DNA of 52,542 bases from NCBI GenBank assembly GCA_023409755.1, contig JAEYRA010000155.1, positions 1-52,542 on the forward strand, written 5' to 3'. The stretch is from Bacillota bacterium (GTDB taxonomy: Bacteria > Bacillota > Clostridia > Christensenellales > UMGS416). Made by a program: the position numbers and the translations under genes. Positions 1-45,069 of the stretch are shown here, piece by piece. The notes beneath the pieces are model-generated. The model did not search any database. It had not been told where the DNA came from and saw only the letters and a list, made by a program, of their open reading frames with translations. Each line of letters begins with the position of its first letter. Within the stretch, counting starts at the first letter, position 1.

Positions 1-1
1 A

Positions 2-103
2 GGCGCACTGCCCGAAGCAGTGGAACCAACCCCATGGGTCGAACCTGCCTTCCGTGGCAAAGGCATCGAAGAAGCGCTGCTGGCCGCCGCAGGGGAATGC
101 TAA
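2..103 (+). CDS. 3' end of a gene cut by the window edge; GNAT acetyltransferase-like C-terminus
   Basis: The in-frame reading ...PWVEPAFRGKGIEEALLAAAGEC ends at TAA 101-103. The R-G-x-G-I-x-x-x-L-L pattern resembles the GNAT acetyl-CoA binding motif. A hairpin plus T-tract follows. Confidence 0.4.
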   Translation, partial: GALPEAVEPTPWVEPAFRGKGIEEALLAAAGEC

Positions 104-122
104 CCCCATTCCCGCCCAACCG

Positions 123-151
123 AAAAAAGCCCCGTGGATCGGGGCCTTTTG
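123..151. terminator. Bidirectional intrinsic terminator
   Basis: Stem GCCCCG (129-134) pairs with CGGGGC (140-145). It has an A-run upstream and TTTTGTTG downstream. It lies between the + strand partial gene and a minus-strand ORF remnant ending at 179. Confidence 0.6.
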
Positions 152-302
152 TTGTGGTGGCTATTACGCGCCGATGCCTTAGTGCTCGTTGAAAGCCGTG
201 CGGTCGATGGATGCGGCGGTGATGGTGCTGGCGTTGGCGCCGTTCCCGGTGGCAGAGTAGCTACCCACCGTCATGGTGTAGTCGCTGTGTGTCGCTCGTT
301 GA

Positions 303-2345
303 CTATTGTATGAATACGACCCGAGCATCGTCTTGTTCAAGCCGCACAGTGATCCGCAAGCGGCTTGAGGGGGTGAACTCCCAGGAGTCAGCGCCATTCA
401 CTCCAGTAAACATCTCCCTATTGACTGGGTCTGTAATATACTCAAACACGCCGCTGCCTCTCGTAAAGAAGCAAATCACGCCTTTGGCGGCCTGTAGATC
501 AAGCTTAGCATGGATCTCCGGGCTGGAACCCAAGAAGCCCTTTGTTTTTGCGGCATTGGCAGTGACATATGGCGCGACTGCTTTGTATTGCTCGAGTGTA
601 TCGCGGAACAATGCGATTCCTTCGGCATCCATTGCGGAGAGATCTCCCCAGATACCATTACCTCCCAGTACAAGGGAAGCCAATGCATTTCGTTGTGCCT
701 TGGCAGGTCCGTCAGGCAAAAAATGCGTCAGGAACAGGATTGATGGGATGAAACTGTCATACTTAATCCCTTGTCTGCAAACACGGCCTCTCGCAGCACC
801 TGGATGAAAGAACACATTGATTGTGTCCGGCAGACGCTTATGCTCTGGAGGGATATCAAAACTGCTGAAATATGGCCCATTGTTCATTAGGAAATACTTC
901 CCGACAGATAGAAAGCCCAGTCCGACGAAACGACCGCCTTCCGTAATATCGAAATCAACAATTGCGTCTGGGCAGACCTTGGAAACCTCCTCAACAATGC
1001 GGATCATTTCCAGGCCCATTTGATAGCTGTAACAATCCAGCCTCTCTTGCGGAGAATTTTCCTGCGTCCCATGATCATGGTTGGGAGAATTACAACCATA
1101 TTGACCAATGGCATCCCATTTAAAATAAGTAACGCCCAACTCTTGATACAGGCGCACCATTGTTTTAATGAAATGATCGGCGTAGCCAGATGCCAGGCAC
1201 ATCCCCCAGCTTTCCTCGGTCTCCCAAATCTTTCCCCAGTAATTTTCTTTGCCATCAATACTCATCCGGTACTCCGGGTGCTCGGTATTGATCCGAGACG
1301 AATCAGCAGCAACGATCGGGTTAAACCAAAGACCCAACTTCATGCCATACTTGTCAAGCTTCTTCCGTACTTCTTGCATGCCATCGGGAAAGCGCTCCTG
1401 GTTAATGACCCAGTCACCTGTCCGGATAAACCATCCAGTATCGATTACGAATACATCAACCCCCATCGCTGCAGCTGTGTCGATTTCTGCAAGGGTGTGC
1501 TGCAGGTTCATGGAATGTAAGTAGGGCAGGTTGTGGTAATACCGGTTTCGCTCCTGTTTATTCCAAGTGTTGTAGAAGATATACGGCTTGCGTGATTCAG
1601 TGTTTTCTGAGATAAACCGCAGGAAGAATTCACGGTAATGGCAGAACAGGGTGTCGCGGCTGCCTGTGCAGCCAAGAACATGAAACCAAGGTGATTCCAG
1701 AGGATGCTCCTTGTCAATGCTCTGGCCGTTGTAATAATTCCCTTTTCTGGCATGGATGGAGATAGCTGTTTGTTCATCATACTTCCTTGCTTTGAACATC
1801 AGATAGGAGTCTGGATATTCAGCGCCGTGTTCATAAGCCATTAAGCAGCAATATCCCTGTGTTTCTGCCAAAGCGATTGGGCCAGGGAATTGTATCCCCT
1901 CCTCAAGTTCTGATTCGGTTTTCAAATCAAAAGTTGGCAGAAAGGAATGGACGATGGTGTCAAACTGGCTTAATAGAATCTCTGTTAAGTCAACTTCCCC
2001 ATTGAAGCAAAGCCCTGTATAAAGGATATTGTCTTCTCCCATGCTTTTTGTAAGCGTGGCAGATTCGCAGCAATCCAAACGATAGCGAAACCGTGCGACG
2101 GGAGAATTGGGAAAGGTTCTGCATATGATCGTCAAGCGGAATGGCCCATGGATGTATTGATACTGTACTTCACGCCCACCGTTTTGCAAATCCCTTAACA
2201 ACGATACCCCAGCAGATACCCAGGATTGACCGCCGATGGTTTGACCGTTTGCTTCATAGACCGGTTCTTTCAGATTGATTACAAAATCGTCAAAATGCAA
2301 GGATAAAAATGCACCATCTTTATCATTGATAACCACAGTTGACAT
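303..2345 (-). CDS. Glycoside hydrolase family 36 alpha-galactosidase-like protein
   Basis: 680-aa ORF with ATG at 2345 and TAG at 303-305. RBS-like GAAAGGA sits upstream. The motifs VFVIDTGWF and YFKWDAIG are typical of GH36/GH27 clan-D alpha-galactosidases. The gene is visibly more AT-rich than its neighbours. Confidence 0.85.
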   Translation of the reverse strand: MSTVVINDKDGAFLSLHFDDFVINLKEPVYEANGQTIGGQSWVSAGVSLLRDLQNGGREVQYQYIHGPFRLTIICRTFPNSPVARFRYRLDCCESATLTKSMGEDNILYTGLCFNGEVDLTEILLSQFDTIVHSFLPTFDLKTESELEEGIQFPGPIALAETQGYCCLMAYEHGAEYPDSYLMFKARKYDEQTAISIHARKGNYYNGQSIDKEHPLESPWFHVLGCTGSRDTLFCHYREFFLRFISENTESRKPYIFYNTWNKQERNRYYHNLPYLHSMNLQHTLAEIDTAAAMGVDVFVIDTGWFIRTGDWVINQERFPDGMQEVRKKLDKYGMKLGLWFNPIVAADSSRINTEHPEYRMSIDGKENYWGKIWETEESWGMCLASGYADHFIKTMVRLYQELGVTYFKWDAIGQYGCNSPNHDHGTQENSPQERLDCYSYQMGLEMIRIVEEVSKVCPDAIVDFDITEGGRFVGLGFLSVGKYFLMNNGPYFSSFDIPPEHKRLPDTINVFFHPGAARGRVCRQGIKYDSFIPSILFLTHFLPDGPAKAQRNALASLVLGGNGIWGDLSAMDAEGIALFRDTLEQYKAVAPYVTANAAKTKGFLGSSPEIHAKLDLQAAKGVICFFTRGSGVFEYITDPVNREMFTGVNGADSWEFTPSSRLRITVRLEQDDARVVFIQ

Positions 2346-2468
2346 CGTAATTCAGTCCTTTCAATGTGTTATAAAGGATACGACTACACTTTGCAATGTT
2401 CCAGTTCTTCTTCATCTCTGCATAGATCTCCTTCCTGAGCTTTTACTTGCAACAAACTCTGCGTTTAC

Positions 2469-2547
2469 TGGTGGTGGAGTATGGAGGATCGAACCGCTGG
2501 TCTCCGATGCGAACGCAGGGGCTTTACCAGCGAAGCCAATGCCTCAT
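2469..2547 (-). other. Degenerate tRNA-like fragment (not a foldable tRNA)
   Basis: The minus-strand RNA has a good D-arm (GCUU-CGCUGGUA-AAGC), a T-loop GGUUCGAUCC and a 3' end ...CUCCACCACCA. The T-stem and acceptor stem do not pair and the anticodon stem has a mismatch. It looks like a chimeric or decayed tRNA 3' half. Confidence 0.3.
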
Positions 2548-2613
2548 ATTTACTTGCTCAAGACCTATCGTGCACCACCTGCTGTTTAAGGGAAGGCGTG
2601 GGGGGGGCGCCCA

Positions 2614-2647
2614 TGAAAAAGGCCCCCCCTTTTCGCATGAGGGGGAG
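2614..2647 (-). terminator. Intrinsic terminator downstream of hydG
   Basis: Minus-strand RNA reads CUCCCCCUCAUGCGAAAAGGGGGGGCCUUUUUC. This is a C-run/G-run stem followed by a U5 tract, ~40 nt after the hydG stop. Confidence 0.6.
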
Positions 2648-2685
2648 CCGGATGTGATGACAATAAGATGGCTTAACTTCGTTCC

Positions 2686-4080
2686 TTACAGGAACAGATC
2701 CCGCTCTCCCGCACGCATGCGCTTGAGCTTGTCCTGCACAGTGGCACGCAGCCGGCCGTCCGTGATGGCTGCCACCTCCCGCTCGATGAGTTTGCTGCCC
2801 ATGTCGTTGAGCTCGGCGTCGCCGTAATCGAGCATGTACTCCTGCAACGTCAGCAGGGCGTTGGGGGTGCAGACGTTCTGGATCTCCCCACTGCGCGCAA
2901 GAGCCATGAACCGGTCGCCGGTGCGGCCCTGACGGTAGCAGGCCGTGCAGTAGCTGGGGATGTAGCCGTTCTCAATGAGATCCTTGATGACCTCCAGCGG
3001 CCGCCGCTCGTCGGAGAGTTCAAACTGATCGGTGTTGACGCGTCGGCCCTGGGCCGTGGCTTCCTCCTGCTCGTGGTAGCCGCCGATGCCGGTGCTGGAG
3101 CCGGCGCTGACCTGAGAGACGCCGTAGCGAAGCAGCTCATCGCGCATGGCGGCACTCTCCCGGGTGGACATGATGATGCCGGTGTAGGGCACGGCGATGC
3201 GGAGGATCGCCACCAGATGCCGGAACGTCTCGTCGTCCACGAGGTTGGGGAAGTCAGCAAGGCTCATGCCTTCGGCCTGCTTCAGGCGCGGCATGCTGAT
3301 GGTGTGGAAGCCCACGCCATAGGTCTGTTCCAGGTGGTCGTTGTGCATCATCAGGGCCAGCGCCTCATACCGCGGGTCGGCCAGGCCGAAGAGCACACCC
3401 GCGCCCACGTCCTCAATGCCGGCCTCCATCGCCCGGTCAAAGGCCGTCAGATGGTACTCGTAGCTGCTCTTCCGGCAGTGGGGGTGCATGGCCTCATAGG
3501 TCGGCTTGTGGTATGTCTCCTGAAACAGGATGTAGGTGCCGATGCCCTTGTCGTGGAGCATGCGGTACTCCTCCACCGTGGTGGCGGCAATGTTCACATT
3601 GACCCGGCGAATGCTGCCGTTGTCGAGCTTGGTCTCGTAGATGGCGTCCAGCGCCTCCAGAATGTACTCAATGGGGCAGTTGACCGGGTCCTCCCCGGCC
3701 TCCAGCGCCAGGCGCTTGTGGCCCATGCGTTCCAACGCTCGTACCTCAGCCTGAATTTCCTCGCGTGTCAGTTTTTTACGCGGCATGGCGTTGCAGCGCT
3801 GGTAGCCGCAGTACACGCAGTTGTTCACGCAGTGGTTGGAGACATAAAGCGGCGCAAACAGCACGATGCGGTTGCCGTAGATCTTCCGCTTGATCTCCCC
3901 GGCGACGGCGTACAGCCGGGCCATCAGATCCGGCTCGTCCACGTAAAGCAGCGTCGCGATATCAGCATGATTGAGCCGTTCGCCGCGCTCGGTCTTCTCC
4001 ACGGCGGCGGTTTTTGTTGCCACGGTCGCGCCGGCGGCGTCGGCCAGCAAGCCTTCAATGTACCCTTGATCAATGAACAT
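2686..4080 (-). CDS. hydG: [FeFe]-hydrogenase maturase HydG (radical SAM tyrosine lyase)
   Basis: Radical-SAM motif CVNNCVYC and C-terminal cluster motif CTACYRQGRTGDRFM...NVCTPN (CxxCx22C). The start is trimmed from the track ORF to ATG 4080, which is preceded by GGAGGA. It overlaps the hydE stop by 11 nt. Confidence 0.93.
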   Translation of the reverse strand: MFIDQGYIEGLLADAAGATVATKTAAVEKTERGERLNHADIATLLYVDEPDLMARLYAVAGEIKRKIYGNRIVLFAPLYVSNHCVNNCVYCGYQRCNAMPRKKLTREEIQAEVRALERMGHKRLALEAGEDPVNCPIEYILEALDAIYETKLDNGSIRRVNVNIAATTVEEYRMLHDKGIGTYILFQETYHKPTYEAMHPHCRKSSYEYHLTAFDRAMEAGIEDVGAGVLFGLADPRYEALALMMHNDHLEQTYGVGFHTISMPRLKQAEGMSLADFPNLVDDETFRHLVAILRIAVPYTGIIMSTRESAAMRDELLRYGVSQVSAGSSTGIGGYHEQEEATAQGRRVNTDQFELSDERRPLEVIKDLIENGYIPSYCTACYRQGRTGDRFMALARSGEIQNVCTPNALLTLQEYMLDYGDAELNDMGSKLIEREVAAITDGRLRATVQDKLKRMRAGERDLFL

Positions 4081-17425: not shown

Positions 17426-17454
17426 AGTATATGCGAGGGAAACGCCATTGTCAA
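17426..17454 (-). promoter_or_regulatory. Sigma-70-type promoter of the CDF leader
   Basis: On the minus strand, TTGACA (17454-17449), a 17-nt spacer and TATACT (17431-17426). Confidence 0.6.
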
Positions 17455-17479
17455 CACAATGGCGCATCAAGTTTACAAT

Positions 17480-29040: not shown

Positions 29041-29073
29041 ACACAATGGCGCGGGAGATTCCCGCGCCATTGT
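29041..29073 (+). terminator. Strong hairpin after the ABC operon
   Basis: CACAATGGCGCGGGA-GAT-TCCCGCGCCATTGTG, a 15-bp perfect stem. There is no clear U-tract. Confidence 0.45.
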
Positions 29074-29124
29074 GCTGCCCGCAACAGCCGCAAGCCATCC
29101 CTTTTCACCAATACCGAACAACAG

Positions 29125-37303: not shown

Positions 37304-37351
37304 GTCGACAGCCGCATGTGCGGTTGAATAGAACAAGGAGGGTTTGTAACC

Positions 37352-38986
37352 ATGGCACTTCTAAACCGGAAAACACTCATGGCAGTGCTGGCTGTGGTGA
37401 TGGCCATCTCGATGGCCGCCTGCAGCGCCGGCACTCCGGCCGCTACCACAGCCGCCGCCACATCGGCCGCCGCCACCGAGGCTGCCACCAGCGCCGCGGA
37501 AACCGCTGCCGAGTCGGCCACCCCCGCCGCGGGCACCGTCGACACCTCCGAGAAGGTCGAAGTTGTCATGTGGCTGCCGGGCGACGCCCCCAAGGGGTTG
37601 GACGCCATGAGCGCCAAGCTCAACGAGATGCTTCTCACCGATCTCAACTGCACCGTGAAGTTCAACTTCACCACCTGGACCGACATCGGCACGAAGTACA
37701 GCATGCTGCTGACCTCCGGCCAACCCATTGACCTCATCCATACGGCCAACTGGCTGCAGGATCGTGTCTACGCCCGCAAAGGCGCCTTCAAACCCCTCAA
37801 CGACCTGCTGGACACCGTCGTTCCCGACCTGAAGGCCTATGTGGGTGACGACATCCTGAAGGACGGCCAGGAAGACGGCGTACAGTACACCATCCCCTGC
37901 AAGTGGAAGGAGTACATCGACAACGGCGTCCTCTACCGTGAGGATCTGCGTGTCAAGTACAACCTGCCCAAGCCTGACTCGCTGGCGAACCTGGAAGCTT
38001 ACATGGCTGGCATCAAGGCCAACGAGCCCCAGATGAAGGTCACCGTCGAAGGCGGCGTCTCCAACGAGTCCTACTCGGGCTTCAGCGGCTCCGAAGTGAT
38101 GCTTCTGGACTACCCCTACATCAGCAAGCCCGACAACGGCCTGGTCATCGGCCTCACCTCCAAGACCGCTTCCTACCTGGACATCACCGAATACTATGGC
38201 AGCGACGCCCACAAGGCCGAGTTGGAACTGATGACCAAGTGGGCCAAAGCCGGCTATTGGAGCCGCAACGCCCTGTCCCAGAAGATTGACGACCGCATCG
38301 CGGCCTTTGAAGCCGGGGACTGCGCGGTGGTGCTGAGCGGTGCCAATGCGATGAAGTGGAACGGCGTGCAGACCCGCTGCGCCACCTCCAACCCCGATTG
38401 GCAGATCGGCTTCATCCCCTACGGCGTGCCCCAGGGCTATGCCCGCCCGGTGCAGCCCACCCAGAACGGCATGGCCGTGCCGCTCTCCAGCCAGAATACC
38501 GAGCGCGCTCTGCTCATGTATGAGAAGTTCAACCTGGACGAAGCCTACAACCACCTGACCCACTACGGCATCGAGGGCACCAACTACACCATCGACGCAG
38601 AGCATCACTATGTGATGGTTGGCACCAGCGACACCAACGACTACCCGCGTGAAGCTCTGAACTGCTGGAGCTGGCGCAACCCGGATCTCATCCTTTACCC
38701 GAAGGAGTATGACAACGTCAAGGCGCTCTTCGCCGAGCAGGACAAGCTGACCCAGCTGCAGTCCACCGCCTTCACCGAGGACCGTGAGCCCGTCGCCAAC
38801 GAACGCGCCGCCCTGACCCAGGTCATCAACCAGTACCTGGCACCGATCTCCGCGGGCCTGAGCAAAGACGTAGCGGGTGACTACGCCAACTTCCTGGAGA
38901 AGGCCAAGGCCGCTGGTCTCCAGAAAATTCAGGACGAGTACAAGAAGCAGTGGCTGGCGTACTGCAACGCCAATGGTCTGAAGTAA
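37352..38986 (+). CDS. Large extracellular solute-binding lipoprotein (family 1 SBP)
   Basis: Lipobox SMAACSAG followed by an Ala/Thr-rich linker. RBS AAGGAGGG. Confidence 0.9.
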   Translation: MALLNRKTLMAVLAVVMAISMAACSAGTPAATTAAATSAAATEAATSAAETAAESATPAAGTVDTSEKVEVVMWLPGDAPKGLDAMSAKLNEMLLTDLNCTVKFNFTTWTDIGTKYSMLLTSGQPIDLIHTANWLQDRVYARKGAFKPLNDLLDTVVPDLKAYVGDDILKDGQEDGVQYTIPCKWKEYIDNGVLYREDLRVKYNLPKPDSLANLEAYMAGIKANEPQMKVTVEGGVSNESYSGFSGSEVMLLDYPYISKPDNGLVIGLTSKTASYLDITEYYGSDAHKAELELMTKWAKAGYWSRNALSQKIDDRIAAFEAGDCAVVLSGANAMKWNGVQTRCATSNPDWQIGFIPYGVPQGYARPVQPTQNGMAVPLSSQNTERALLMYEKFNLDEAYNHLTHYGIEGTNYTIDAEHHYVMVGTSDTNDYPREALNCWSWRNPDLILYPKEYDNVKALFAEQDKLTQLQSTAFTEDREPVANERAALTQVINQYLAPISAGLSKDVAGDYANFLEKAKAAGLQKIQDEYKKQWLAYCNANGLK

Positions 38987-39010: not shown

Positions 39011-39035
39011 AGGACCCGGCCATTGGCTGGGTCCT
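39011..39035 (+). terminator. Hairpin after the SBP gene (weak terminator, no U-tract)
   Basis: AGGACCCGGCC-ATT-GGCTGGGTCCT is an 11-bp stem including one G-U pair. It is followed by CTGAGTATC, so read-through is plausible. Confidence 0.4.
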
Positions 39036-39089
39036 CTGAGTATCTACAAGCCCCTAGAACGGGCAAAGGCAGATGACCCTCCCGCCGAT

Positions 39090-39711
39090 TCATTCAGCAG
39101 AGGGAAAGTCAGGCTCAGAGCGAGCAGAAGTGAAAATCCCGCCCGAAGGCGGCGCACGTATCCCTAGAAACCCCGCATGAGAGCTGCAATCGTGATCGGT
39201 CCATTGCAATACTTCGTATTGCTCGCGTTGCTCTCAACGATTCTGAAGAATCGTCTGCCGCAACGTCAGACGCCCCCGGAAGGGCGTCCAACCCAAGCGC
39301 CGTGAGTACGACGCTATGCGTCGCACTAGCCGCACGAGGCGGCGTAAGGCGCGCCGGGCGGGACTGAGAGTCGGCCACATGTGCGGCGAATCAGACACGC
39401 ATGAATGCGTGCAAACCGTCACGCCGTGGCTGGTCGCAGCCTTCGGCTGCTGCTCGCCCAAGCATCCCGGAAGGCATTGCACCGCAATGCCTTAGCGCTC
39501 GGATGGCGCGTAAGGCGTGAACGGCGATCTAGCCATATAGAGTGCAAGCTGTCCGAATCGCAGCTGTTGCCACAGCGGCCAGGCCGCAGGGCCGAGCAGT
39601 GCCGGAACGGCACGACCAGGCGTGCGTAGCACGCGACCAGCCAGCCGCGAAAGGCTGTCGACTTTGTCGACAGCCTCAGGAACCCGGCCCCAGGCCGGGT
39701 TCCTTCCTTTT
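39090..39711 (+). ncRNA. Candidate large structured non-coding RNA (unclassified)
   Basis: At least 15 consecutive stem-loops, two long-range perfect complementarities (11 bp and 8 bp), repeated loop motifs, and a terminal 11-bp GC stem plus U-tract on the + strand. There is no credible ORF. Details are in the findings. The 5' boundary is approximate. Confidence 0.5.
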
Positions 39712-39782
39712 GCCCGGTGAGGCTTGCATACGGCGGCGGGCAGCACTCCCTTGCCCCGCATCACGCATATGCCACAGCACCC

Positions 39783-39815
39783 TAGCAATAAGCCCCGCAG
39801 GAAACCCGGCGGGGC
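39783..39815 (-). terminator. Intrinsic terminator of the GH2 gene
   Basis: Minus RNA is GCCCCGC-CGGGUUUCCU-GCGGGGC followed by UUAUUGCU. Confidence 0.6.
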
Positions 39816-39861
39816 TTGTTGCTGTAACAGGGGCGGAGAAATTTCCCCTGCGTGTGGATCG

Positions 39862-42509: not shown

Positions 42510-42613
42510 CACCGCCTTACAGCAGGGATGCCGGCACTGCAGCTTTCTCCGTCTGGCCTTGGGAAATCTGCCAAGCCAATAAGACACCGGCAGCACCAAC
42601 AGCTGGTAGACAC

Positions 42614-42646
42614 CAGGTGGGGCCTGCATACCGCCGGCCCCACCTG
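42614..42646. terminator. Bidirectional hairpin between convergent genes
   Basis: CAGGTGGGGCC-(11 nt)-GGCCCCACCTG, an 11-bp stem between the AraC stop and the P-II stop. Confidence 0.5.
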
Positions 42647-42710
42647 TTCACTGATTGAAGTTACGTTGTACAGACGTTGAAGCGAAGGCTCCGCGCGTAC
42701 AGCAGCCCTC

Positions 42711-43016
42711 TTACCCCACGACCCTTTCCACAGGCATCATAAAGCAAATGCCGTTGGTGGGAGTGTTAGGCCCCGCTTTTTCCTTGATCACCGCTATGAT
42801 CCTATCGGCTACGTCTGCGGGGGCAAGGCTCACGATGACTTCCTTCTCGGTATCCACCGTAATCCCCATGATGGACTTATGAATCGTACCCATACCGCGG
42901 GCGTTGATGATGGTCGCCCCCGTAGCCCCTGCCGCACGGGCGATCTCCACAGCCTCATCGGCAAAACCCGCGTTGACAATGATGAACAACGCTTTCATGT
43001 TGCTAGCGATTTCCAT
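42711..43016 (-). CDS. P-II (GlnB-like) family signal-transduction protein
   Basis: KALFIIVNAGFADEAVEIARAAGATGATIINARGMG ... is a ferredoxin-like P-II pattern. ATG 43016 follows GAGGGA. Confidence 0.8.
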   Translation of the reverse strand: MEIASNMKALFIIVNAGFADEAVEIARAAGATGATIINARGMGTIHKSIMGITVDTEKEVIVSLAPADVADRIIAVIKEKAGPNTPTNGICFMMPVERVVG

Positions 43017-43026
43017 TGTTGTCCCT

Positions 43027-43344
43027 CTATTTGGCCAATATTTTATCCACCCGCACGGTGAACGCCCTTCCAGTACCGGGCTTGCCAAAGTTGTACTTCT
43101 CTACCAGTGTATTGAGCATGGTGTCCGCTTTGTCACGAGCCAGCAGGCAAACAAGCATGACTTTGTTCTCTTCCGGTACCAATCCAAGCGCGTCTCGAAA
43201 ATATCCTGACCTGCAACCGTCTCTGCAATAGACTGCATTGATCAAGCAACCGCCCATCTGCGTGAGTGTATCGATGAATACATCTTTATGCTTCTTGGGG
43301 GTGATCAGGACCAGAAAGACAGCGCCGCAATGGGCATTATTCAT
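43027..43344 (-). CDS. Divergent P-II-like protein
   Basis: 105 aa with the same beta-alpha-beta layout (VFLVLITPKKHKDVFIDTLTQMGG ...). ATGAATAA overlap with the DUF1538 stop. Confidence 0.7.
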   Translation of the reverse strand: MNNAHCGAVFLVLITPKKHKDVFIDTLTQMGGCLINAVYCRDGCRSGYFRDALGLVPEENKVMLVCLLARDKADTMLNTLVEKYNFGKPGTGRAFTVRVDKILAK

Positions 43345-44977
43345 GTTGTATATCTGTTTCCTCCATCAAACGTCCAGAGACAACAGCGTCTAAAAACGGA
43401 TTATCCACCGCTTCTGGTTCCTCCTCATATATGGTAAGTGCCGTTAGTTCATCAAGCGCATCCAACTCCATCGCTTTTGCCTTGGCGGTGAGGGTTTTCA
43501 ATCGCATGTCGTATATAATACCTAAACCCTGCACAGCTATCAAGGGGGTAACAGAAATAAATGCAATGATCCCAAAACCATTTGTTAAAACTGACTGAGC
43601 CTGAGACCCAGCTGAGGCAGCTACCGCCTGTGCCGTGCCAAGGGTAAGAGGCGTCAGGAACGCTGAGGTCAGTGCCCCGCCAGTGACACCGCCCGAATCG
43701 AACGCCAGACCCACGAACAGCTTGGAGGTAAACTTCATCATGATCAGCGCCACCGCGTAAAGCGGCACCAGAAACCAGAGGATGTTGATCTGCGTCAGGA
43801 TCTTCACCATGAAGATGAGCGCGGCAAAGCCAATGCCAATGGCCAGCGTCAGTCTGATGGTCAGTTTCTTGATGTGACCGTTCGTAATTTTCTCCAACTG
43901 CTCACCCAACACGGTTACCGCAGGCTCGGAAAGGGTGATGGCTGCGCCTAGAACAAACCCGACCAGAAGCAGCATCCACTTGAACCAACCGGGCCGACTG
44001 GCATCCAGGAAAACCTCGCCAATGTACTTGCCGGCAAACGCAAAGCCATAATCGATGCTTGACAGGAAGATGAGTAGCCCTACGAAGACGGCGGCTGCGC
44101 CAAGCAAGATCTCGATGAACTCCTTTTTGGAGAGTTTGATGAGCCAGAACTGAAAGGGCAGGAATACCACCAACACGGGGATAAGCGCAAGGGCAACACT
44201 GGCCATATTGGATACGACAACGGCCCCCAGGCTATCGACCGCTCCGGGGTTATACAGGCTGGCGAGCGGAAGCGTGCCGCCCGACACTGCCTTCAACACG
44301 ATGCCGTAGAGAAACAACGCCAGAATCGGCCCCACGGAGGCCAGGCCGATGATGCCAAAGGTGTCTTCACTGGTCTTAGTTTTTGACATAGTGCCAGAGA
44401 TGCCCAGGCCGAGCGCCAGAATAAAGGGCACCGAAACGTCACCAGTCGTCGCACCGCTGCCATCAAAGGAGAGCGCAACAAACTGCTCGGGGACGAAGAT
44501 AATCATGAGGAAAATCAGGCCGTAAAGGATGGCAAAAACGAGCTTGAGGTTCAGGTTCTTCATAATCCGGTACAACGAGAACGCGACGAAAACGCCGATG
44601 CCCAAACTCAACACCCAGATAAACAGAGTTTCGTTTACGTTGTTCATGATCATGTGGGTCTGCTTGGCCAGAACCGTCAACGCGGGTTCGGCAACCGTCA
44701 CCAACAGACCAAACAGGAAACCAACAAAAATGATCACTGCGGCTTTTTTCAGCTTAATGAGAGAACTGCCCACCAATTTACCGATCGGCAGAATGCTGAT
44801 GTCCAAACCATCCAAAAACACGGCTTGGCCCAACACGACGCCAGCATAACCAATAATTAATCTAACATAATCAAAAAGGTTTTCCATGGGGGCCACAAAA
44901 CCGCATACCACAATGATCACAACGGCAAGCGGCAGTGAGGACAAAAAGACATCTTTTATCGTGCTAAATAACTTCAT
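43337..44977 (-). CDS. DUF1538-type polytopic membrane protein (internally duplicated)
   Basis: About 12 or more TM helices. The repeated motifs FDGSGATTGDVSVPFILALGLG and FDSGGVTGGALTSAFLTPLTLG match my recollection of DUF1538. ATG 44977 has no own RBS; it overlaps the stop of a small upstream ORF. Confidence 0.8.
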   Translation of the reverse strand: MKLFSTIKDVFLSSLPLAVVIIVVCGFVAPMENLFDYVRLIIGYAGVVLGQAVFLDGLDISILPIGKLVGSSLIKLKKAAVIIFVGFLFGLLVTVAEPALTVLAKQTHMIMNNVNETLFIWVLSLGIGVFVAFSLYRIMKNLNLKLVFAILYGLIFLMIIFVPEQFVALSFDGSGATTGDVSVPFILALGLGISGTMSKTKTSEDTFGIIGLASVGPILALFLYGIVLKAVSGGTLPLASLYNPGAVDSLGAVVVSNMASVALALIPVLVVFLPFQFWLIKLSKKEFIEILLGAAAVFVGLLIFLSSIDYGFAFAGKYIGEVFLDASRPGWFKWMLLLVGFVLGAAITLSEPAVTVLGEQLEKITNGHIKKLTIRLTLAIGIGFAALIFMVKILTQINILWFLVPLYAVALIMMKFTSKLFVGLAFDSGGVTGGALTSAFLTPLTLGTAQAVAASAGSQAQSVLTNGFGIIAFISVTPLIAVQGLGIIYDMRLKTLTAKAKAMELDALDELTALTIYEEEPEAVDNPFLDAVVSGRLMEETDIQHE

Positions 44978-45069
44978 AGGGCAATGTAACCGCTGAAGAC
45001 CTCGCAATAAAAGCAACAACCGATGGGCCTAAGCCCTTTCCATGTCTTACATCGCTGCACCGCTTTCAT
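44974..45069 (-). CDS. Candidate 31-aa Cys-rich small ORF translationally coupled to the DUF1538 gene
   Basis: AAGGAGA lies 7 nt before ATG 45069. The peptide is MKAVQRCKTWKGLRPIGCCFYCEVFSGYIAL. Its stop TGA overlaps ATG 44977 (ATGA). Confidence 0.35.
   Translation of the reverse strand: MKAVQRCKTWKGLRPIGCCFYCEVFSGYIAL

Follow-up and report, generated by a model that had tools for sequence, protein, structure and literature searches.

We report that a hairpin-dense, non-coding segment of a Clostridia genome is, on comparison with its closest relatives, an insertion that postdates the split of two sister species, and that it lies at the terminator of the last gene of an ABC (ATP-binding cassette) sugar-uptake operon. 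The segment (39036–39677) is found in a 52,542-nt stretch of DNA from a Bacillota bacterium (assembly GCA_023409755.1, contig JAEYRA010000155.1), hereinafter the window, to which all coordinates refer, on the + strand unless stated otherwise. It appears to be one copy of a dispersed, modular repeat family that has not been described before, and we consider it probable that this family is a non-autonomous, non-coding transposable element which targets the foot of intrinsic-terminator stem-loops by their structure. The initial annotation of this DNA had read the region as a candidate large structured RNA of the OLE/ROOL/GOLLD kind. Such a conserved single-locus RNA gene is not what the comparisons below recover: the segment is absent from the orthologous site in the two nearest relatives, is flanked by a duplication, and recurs as a dispersed repeat.

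The descriptive part of that annotation holds up well. The segment occupies an 875-nt gap between the stop codon of the solute-binding-protein gene (38986) and that of a convergent GH2 gene (39862), and all the stem-loops listed there are present. There are 11 perfect hairpins (stem of at least 6 bp, loop of 3–6 nt) within 39206–39704, and three more with 5-bp stems (39139–39152, 39329–39343 and 39642–39657). Both long-range complementarities, 39427–39437 with 39633–39643 and 39120–39130 with 39447–39457, are likewise real, the second being somewhat longer than first described, and the 10-mer GCGTAAGGCG does occur twice. The 642-nt insert by itself contains 10 perfect hairpins with stems of at least 6 bp as against 1.0±1.0 in 1000 dinucleotide shuffles, not one of which reaches 10, and its hairpin density is unique in the window, across which 642-nt windows have a median of one such hairpin. 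The proposed comparison of minimum free energy (MFE) with dinucleotide-shuffled controls places the segment far below the shuffles, with z-scores of −6.8 on the + strand and −8.2 on the − strand. The gap is also non-coding, as had been supposed: its open reading frames (ORFs) are shadow ORFs, because GC content is flat over the three codon positions (0.64/0.57/0.65), whereas GC at third codon positions (GC3) is 0.80–0.85 in the flanking genes.

The insertion becomes apparent when the binding-protein locus (site 1) is aligned with its orthologues. Only two close relatives of the binding protein are present in the protein collection, at 97% and 82% identity, and the gene order around the gene is kept in both. 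They represent a sister species (L004) and the 82% relative (L005), while L001–L003 are the same site in assemblies of the window organism. The spacer between the binding-protein and GH2 genes measures 210 nt in L004 and 66 nt in L005, and each has a single terminator hairpin followed by a T-tract. In the window, the same hairpin occurs twice, at 39011–39035 (copy A) and 39678–39704 (copy B), flanking 642 nt which have no counterpart in L004 or L005 and whose borders are sharp; measured against L004, a 27-nt hairpin has been duplicated. The left junction is identical in three independent assemblies of the window organism, of which two contain the whole insert. Copy A is separated from its T-tract, in line with the earlier remark that this hairpin lacks one, and is slightly diverged, with the ATT loop of the empty site in L004; its stem is nevertheless still closed, by way of a paired A/T deletion and one G·T pair. 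Copy B with its T-tract is the only canonical terminator that a terminator scan finds in the gap. The initial annotation had correctly recognized this GC stem and U-tract as a terminator but had taken it for the 3′ end of the segment. Since a single copy with a T-tract is kept in L004 and L005, both of which lack the segment, copy B is, judged by this conservation, the intact native terminator of the binding-protein gene and not the 3′ end of the element. The features of the locus and of the insert are collected in Table 1.

Table 1. Features of the insertion locus and of the inserted element, in window coordinates.
Feature	Position	Strand	Basis or remark
DUF3502-type extracellular solute-binding protein, last gene of the ABC sugar-uptake operon	37352..38986	+	Pfam PF12010; its terminator is the insertion target
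Copy A, upstream target hairpin AGGACCCGGCC-ATT-GGCTGGGTCCT	39011..39035	+	Alignment with L004 and L005; repeat search
Inserted element, 642 nt, non-coding, 10 perfect hairpins and long-range helices	39036..39677	+	No counterpart at the site in relatives
Conserved family 5′ end, consensus GAGTGTCTACAAACCCCTAGAACGGGCA	39038..39065	+	Alignment of copies
First half of the most conserved core, GTTGCTCTCAACGATTCTGAAGAATCGTCTGCCGCAAC	39224..39265	+	92–100% identical to consensus
Optional three-hairpin module	39266..39357	+	Complete in the window and L009, partial in L008, not in the other seven copies
Second half of the conserved core, GCGGGACTGAGAGTCGGCGACATGTGCGGCGAA... CCGTCACGCC	39358..39425	+	Conservation profile of copies
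Optional module GGCTGGTCGC-(perfect hairpin of variable sequence)-TGCTCGCC	39427..39472	+	0–3 per copy
Family-wide 3′ end motif CAG(A/C)CGCGAAAG	39642..39653	+	In L010 and L011 the duplicated target hairpin follows directly
Terminal 11-bp hairpin AGGCTGTCGAC-TTT-GTCGACAGCCT	39652..39676	+	Only in four copies: window, L009, L012, L014a
Copy B, downstream target hairpin AGGAACCCGGCC-CCA-GGCCGGGTTCCT with TCCTTTTG	39678..39712	+	Kept in L004 and L005; terminator scan
Terminator-like hairpin of the convergent GH2 gene	39784..39823	-	Outside the element; kept at the empty site

To recover relatives of the insert, the translation of a stop-free frame of the insert was used as a degenerate DNA probe (hereinafter the pseudo-protein scan). 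The loci that it yielded, nine in number, belong to a single metagenome-assembled genome (MAG), “Bacillota bacterium OH_SBrB_79” (JAEWRW01), and nhmmer added further fragments. The proteins flanking one of these copies (L008) are encoded on the same 319,855-bp scaffold as L004, which identifies this MAG as the sister organism, in which the binding-protein site is empty; as the DNA of the two organisms is about 88–91% identical, we treat them as sister species. Across blastn, MAFFT and nhmmer, the family comprises at least 10 copies (L006–L014 among them) of 270–715 nt, 70–85% identical to the window insert and modular in their make-up. They lie in unrelated intergenic regions of the sister species, beside unrelated housekeeping genes, such as those for PFOR, SASP, ZnuA, a LacI-type regulator and an acyl-CoA synthetase, among others.

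The copies share a 5′ end that begins GAGTGTCTAC... (also written GAGTGTCTACAAACC) and a 3′ end that reads ...CAGACGCGAAAG, between which lies a conserved core with the 30-nt sequence GGGACTGAGAGTCGGCGACATGTGCGGCGA. The region 39374–39389 pairs with 39558–39570 in 10 of 10 copies, and the arms of the optional module at 39427–39472 pair with 39590–39643. Module content varies: L009 and L011 carry extra modules, L009 is truncated at its 5′ end, and a 270-nt version of the element lacks the most conserved core altogether. The terminal hairpin, restricted to a subset of copies, has the same geometry as the target hairpins described below and may be an earlier target hairpin that was carried along or else a subfamily-specific end. 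Because L010, which lacks this hairpin, has nonetheless transposed with a target duplication, the hairpin is dispensable and the true 3′ end of the element is placed at ...GCGAAA(G).

Several further observations concern the make-up and number of copies. Within the optional module the GGCTGGTCGC and TGCTCGCC flanks are conserved and the hairpin between them is wholly different each time (CAGCC/GGCTG, ACGC/GCGT, AACCC/GGGTT, TCGC/GCGA), as if cassettes had been swapped. Directly after the terminal hairpin of L009 (L009:4530-4557) stands ATAC-CAGAGTG..., identical to the element's 5′ end, and a neighbouring, degraded copy may begin there. In the sister species, the stretch L014:4788-5720 downstream of the PFOR gene is a 930-nt intergenic “hairpin forest” (MFE −468 kcal/mol) with nested family fragments in both orientations and a diverged relative. 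Contigs from independent assemblies (L003, L018, L019 and L029) end inside the element, 60–225 nt in; since repeats cause such breaks, these ends hint at several copies in the window species too.

These comparisons bear directly on whether the segment, instead of having arrived as a unit, might be an array of terminators or REP-like palindromes that formed in place, or else the remains of a gene. Many independent GC-rich hairpins downstream of a highly expressed binding-protein gene would suit an array, and REP/BIME clusters in E. coli are comparable GC-rich hairpin arrays downstream of genes. However, the hairpins of the insert are not repeats of one another, all 642 nt are collinear with copies at unrelated loci in another species, and the insertion borders at the empty sites are sharp. 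As for a pseudogene or decayed coding region, GC3 shows no periodicity and a search of a set of 5.8 billion proteins with the translated frames, which would also have picked up spurious ORFs called on other copies, found no relatives, by which this candidate was ruled out. We regard this explanation in both its forms as effectively refuted.

The orthologues of the proteins flanking each copy were used to locate the corresponding empty sites, and these reveal what the insertions have in common. Nine copies have an intact 5′ end, and in every one of them a strong, terminator-like hairpin stands 2–8 nt upstream of it. The nine target hairpins differ in sequence at every locus, and the left flanks between hairpin and element vary as well (CT, CA, CAA, TTC, TTA, CGTTCA, GTTTAA, TTTCGT). 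Seven pairs of filled and empty sites could be compared: three show duplication of the whole hairpin (25–37 bp), three do not, and in one the relative (L015) is too diverged for a clean junction. Besides site 1, the duplications comprise site 2, which is filled in the sister species (L012, L017) with a perfect 25-bp flanking duplication, AGAGGCCGCCCTTTGGGCGGCCTCT, that corresponds exactly to an 11-bp stem with a 3-nt loop, and which is empty in the window species (L022) with one hairpin; and site 3, where the hairpin plus TTTCGT, about 35 nt, stands on both sides of the element in L010 and once in the empty L027, followed by the same TGTCGCAC. The same arrangement of flanking hairpins is seen at L011, L014a and L012b, without an empty-site comparison (L029, which is of the same species as L011, provided no empty site). 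In the three verified insertions without hairpin duplication (L006/L023, L008/L025 and L013/L026), the element lies between the hairpin and the stop codon of the next gene, and the hairpin is found only on its 5′ side. Thus, the hairpin is retained in all verified cases and duplicated in three of six. Taken together, the aligned sites show insertion at terminator stem-loops, directed by structure and independent of sequence, with a duplication that is either structure-defined or absent.

The same pairs date the activity of the family. Sites 1 and 2 are reciprocal, in that each sister species carries an insertion absent from the other, from which it follows that the family was active after the two species split. 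Presence and absence differ between them at every comparable site except L012b, an old copy common to both, of which a remnant is found in an 83% relative. At one empty site, the counterpart of L008 in the window species (L025:3281-3295), the terminator hairpin is immediately preceded on its 5′ side by the 13 nt ACAGACGCAAAGC, which agree with the 3′ end of the element, CAGACGCGAAAG, in 11 of 12 positions; possible explanations are a footprint of excision, a solo end and a preference in the choice of target.

We posit that mobilization occurs in trans, through an enzyme whose gene lies at some other place in the genome. Acting on a hairpin or cruciform that has been extruded, this enzyme would join the ends of the element to both strands at its feet. 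If strand transfer took place at both 5′ feet and the gaps were then repaired, the stem-loop would be duplicated; transfer on one side only would give a simple insertion. The closest known behaviours are the stem-loop targeting of IS1272/IS1182 and the insertion of group IIC introns, although the element belongs to neither group. IS1272 and TnSha1, of the IS1182 family, target terminator stem-loops without shared sequence, just downstream of genes and in either orientation (PMC4923244; PMC5678879), much as the nine different hairpins are targeted here. The cruciform model drawn for IS1272, with strand transfer at the 5′ feet, predicts that the entire stem-loop is duplicated (PMC5678879 Fig. 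13 pathway b). However, IS1272 and TnSha1 delete the terminator hairpins they target (PMC4923244), the stem-loop being partly deleted or replaced without a target duplication; with the present element the hairpin survives, either as two whole copies or as a single one on the element's 5′ side. Moreover, IS1272 has a DDE transposase and 16-bp terminal inverted repeats, in contrast to a non-coding element without clear inverted repeats.

Among small repeats, the element resembles MITEs (miniature inverted-repeat transposable elements) and families such as BOX, RUP, Correia and ERIC in being non-coding, intergenic, multi-copy, strongly folding and polymorphic between close relatives. BOX is also modular, and repeats of the MITE type are presumably mobilized in trans, as is proposed here. 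Classical MITEs, however, end in inverted repeats that match those of a parent IS and duplicate a short target whose length is fixed, in place of which we find asymmetric ends and a duplication of 25, 27 or about 35 bp, or none. REP/BIME/REPIN elements (associated with RAYT transposases) and PATEs are likewise palindrome-rich extragenic repeats, often 3′ of genes, but REPs are 20–40-nt units with a conserved sequence, unlike the present element. The IS200/IS605-derived PATEs come closer in being 0.4–0.9 kb long and non-coding with asymmetric ends; yet IS200/IS605 elements have a conserved 4–5-nt target at the left end and no duplication, whereas here the left flanks vary and duplications occur. 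No match of the element to an omega-RNA or to the IS605-orfB family was found, and an IS200/IS605 (PATE) origin was ruled out by the want of a conserved left-end target motif. A site-specific integrase with att duplication was also ruled out, the duplicated sequence being different at every locus. In the duplication of CRISPR repeats, Cas1–Cas2, like casposases, integrates in a staggered manner at the two borders of a palindromic unit, and gap repair duplicates the unit. The likeness to the present case, in which a whole palindromic unit of about 25–37 bp is duplicated, is one of analogy only: there is no array, there are no cas genes and no fixed repeat sequence, and the inserted DNA is a 270–715-nt element.

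The strong folding of the segment and its retention across copies raise the question of whether it is instead a large, structured non-coding RNA that serves the cell in its own right, comparable to OLE, ROOL or GOLLD, and whose multiple copies and association with mobile DNA are incidental. The helices found on both strands are intact in 95.7% of cells, the covariation score exceeds that of all 500 shuffles, the internal core is nearly invariant and the long-range helices persist in every copy, all of which, together with the folding z-scores, would be expected of such an RNA. However, the majority of pairs do not vary at all; changes on both sides affect no more than 6 pairs out of 68, mostly in the hairpin 39206–39222, and 36 of the 500 shuffles reach that count. 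Among strand-symmetric pairs, G·U (17 cells) and A·C (16 cells) are equally frequent, so neither strand behaves as a selected RNA strand. In addition, the segment is missing from the orthologous locus of the nearest relatives, with L012b the only copy shared between the sister species at the sites compared; target duplications flank it; its module content is highly variable, down to the 270-nt version without the most conserved core; no Rfam family matches; and, in the collections scanned, the family was detected only in one narrow lineage. Of the multi-domain folded RNA originally proposed, the richness in hairpins, the folding and the existence of homologues that keep most helices all stand, while an evolved RNA fold is the less fitting reading, and the proposed search for homologues with covariation found the former but not covariation across most helices. 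We consider a cellular RNA of this kind quite improbable. The evidence for RNA-level selection on the element is weak, and the stems, which are perfect Watson–Crick palindromes with 3-nt loops, would be better understood as palindromes kept at the level of DNA, or single-stranded DNA, than as an evolved ornate RNA fold, though some structural constraint exists.

The suggested covariance-model scan with Rfam 15, which covers OLE, ROOL, GOLLD, raiA and HEARO among others, gave no match over the whole window at gathering thresholds, and at E≤10 the window copy, L012 and L011 gave nothing credible, the best being 15–20-bit matches on terminator hairpins. A tRNA/tmRNA scan found neither. Beyond the host, distant-mode blastn of the insert against plasmids and phages, an exact 24-mer in GTDB representative genomes, a conserved 22-mer in JGI metagenomes and IMG/VR, and pseudo-protein scans of metagenomes and viral contigs all returned no match; within these collections, the family was detected only in one narrow lineage.

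A second way in which RNA could be involved is as an intermediate. Under this alternative, transcription of the element would extend to a downstream terminator, and reverse transcription of its RNA would take place at terminator DNA that carries a nick or would follow a template switch onto a terminated transcript's 3′ end. A reverse transcriptase, of group II (class C-like) or another type, would provide mobility in trans, and the duplication would result from staggered cleavage of the second strand beyond the hairpin. The insertion sites of class C (IIC) group II introns, which recognize structure and not sequence, lie a few nucleotides past the stem-loops of intrinsic terminators, on their downstream side, and the 5′ junction of the present element, 2–8 nt after the hairpin, is where terminated transcripts end and these introns insert (PMC1702495). 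A target duplication of 25–37 bp or none is as in target-primed reverse transcription. The asymmetric ends without clear inverted repeats, the 5′-truncated L009, and the extra 3′ terminator-like hairpin common to four copies at different loci, as if a master transcript had ended at its own terminator, all fit such a route, as does the T-tract that follows the downstream hairpin in four of the five duplication-flanked copies compared (window, L010, L011 and L014a, the exception being L012). However, the window and its flanks revealed no gene for a reverse transcriptase, no group II domain matches at E≤10, G·U does not exceed A·C on either strand, there is no A-rich or U-rich tail beyond GAAAG, and three copies (L012, L008 and L013) are antisense to the apparent direction of the terminator. 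To our knowledge, no SINE-like (short interspersed nuclear element-like) system is known from bacteria, which likewise counts against it. We therefore consider a retroelement origin unlikely.

The element is in any case not itself a group II intron. The likeness extends to the position just past the terminator and to the ORF-less forms, multi-copy structured RNAs of about 0.4–0.7 kb (PMC1702495). But the element shows no match to domains V/VI or D1–D4, with no Intron_gpII or group-II-D1D4 match at E≤10; it has no reverse transcriptase ORF; its 5′ end, (GA)GUGUC..., comes near to GUGYG without matching it, and its 3′ end is ...GCGAAAG in place of AY; and, whereas IIC introns make no target duplication, it duplicates the hairpin at three verified loci, and some of its copies are antisense to the terminator. 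The lack of a domain match and the target duplications ruled this candidate out.

Some points do weigh against the reading of the family as a non-autonomous transposable element. The search for a transposase, reverse transcriptase or autonomous partner came up empty in the window and in some 200 kb of flanking DNA; no copy has a gene for either enzyme within 5 kb, and Pfam scans of 39 neighbouring ORFs identified no transposase, reverse transcriptase or HUH enzyme. No convincing terminal inverted repeats were found, the best being an 11/16 match of CAGAGTGTTTACAAAC and CAGGCTGTCGACAAAG that occurs only in the subfamily with the terminal hairpin. Some selection on structure is suggested by the compensatory changes that are clear in one hairpin and by the higher conservation of paired (0.94) than unpaired (0.85) columns, and the interior of the element is more conserved than its ends, which is not the usual pattern in a MITE and could mean that the interior acts as an RNA or binds protein.

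A bolder proposal, which we hold to be rather unlikely, is that with this family a new class of mobile elements guided by structure comes into view. The machinery for its integration would read the extruded terminator hairpin as a unit, as in the duplication of CRISPR repeats, and could carry the downstream hairpin copy along, such that the hairpin-dense body would be partly a record of earlier target terminators; if it also moves by way of RNA, as it may, it would be the first bacterial retroelement of a SINE-like kind.

Other observations were made in and around the window. In the spacer between the permease and binding-protein genes, 37304–37330 reads GTCGACAGCCGCATGTGCGG, similar to the core motif ACATGTGCGG with one arm of the terminal hairpin attached, where L004 reads GTCGACAGCCGCGTCTGCGG; the match is short and of marginal significance (blastn-short E 0.17–0.66). 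Two strong palindromes downstream of genes, at 17443–17464 and 29042–29074, have in common the word ACAATGGCG, which occurs 6 times in the window as compared to an expected 0.67, and may constitute a second short palindromic repeat family. Downstream of an AraC-type regulator, 42510–45019 holds a P-II gene and a DUF1538 gene at a lower GC content (0.51), while the counterpart in the sister species (L004:8494-9635) has a YitT-family gene instead, a difference in gene content beside the studied locus. Positions 1–3000 are likewise GC-poor (0.47–0.54).

For the host, the insertion is predicted to alter the end of the operon transcript. Because copy A is separated from its T-tract, transcripts of the ABC operon would run through the element and stop at copy B. 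The initial annotation had suggested read-through from this operon in view of the missing sigma-70-like promoter; no such promoter was found for the segment in our analysis either, and read-through is plausible for a segment that lies between a hairpin devoid of a T-tract and an intact terminator. A short 3′ end would thereby have become a predicted 640-nt structured 3′ untranslated region of the sugar-uptake operon, which could change mRNA stability.

Small non-autonomous repeats and structure-targeted transposition are both known in bacteria; what is new here is the combination of asymmetric ends and a 270–715-nt body with a whole-hairpin duplication verified against empty sites. The latter provides sequence-level evidence for the duplication of an entire stem-loop on insertion, previously only a drawn possibility for IS1272. 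As 270 nt suffice, the element offers a compact substrate for the search for its enzyme and for studies of cruciform- or hairpin-directed integration. There is also a warning for annotation, in that a strong folding z-score, conserved helices and the lack of an Rfam match are not enough to call a new ornate RNA gene; it was the empty-site comparison that settled the question of an RNA gene in this case. Terminator hairpins are safe landing pads, which few mobile elements, such as IIC introns and IS1272, are known to find by shape, and to these the present family would add a non-coding hitch-hiker that does the same.

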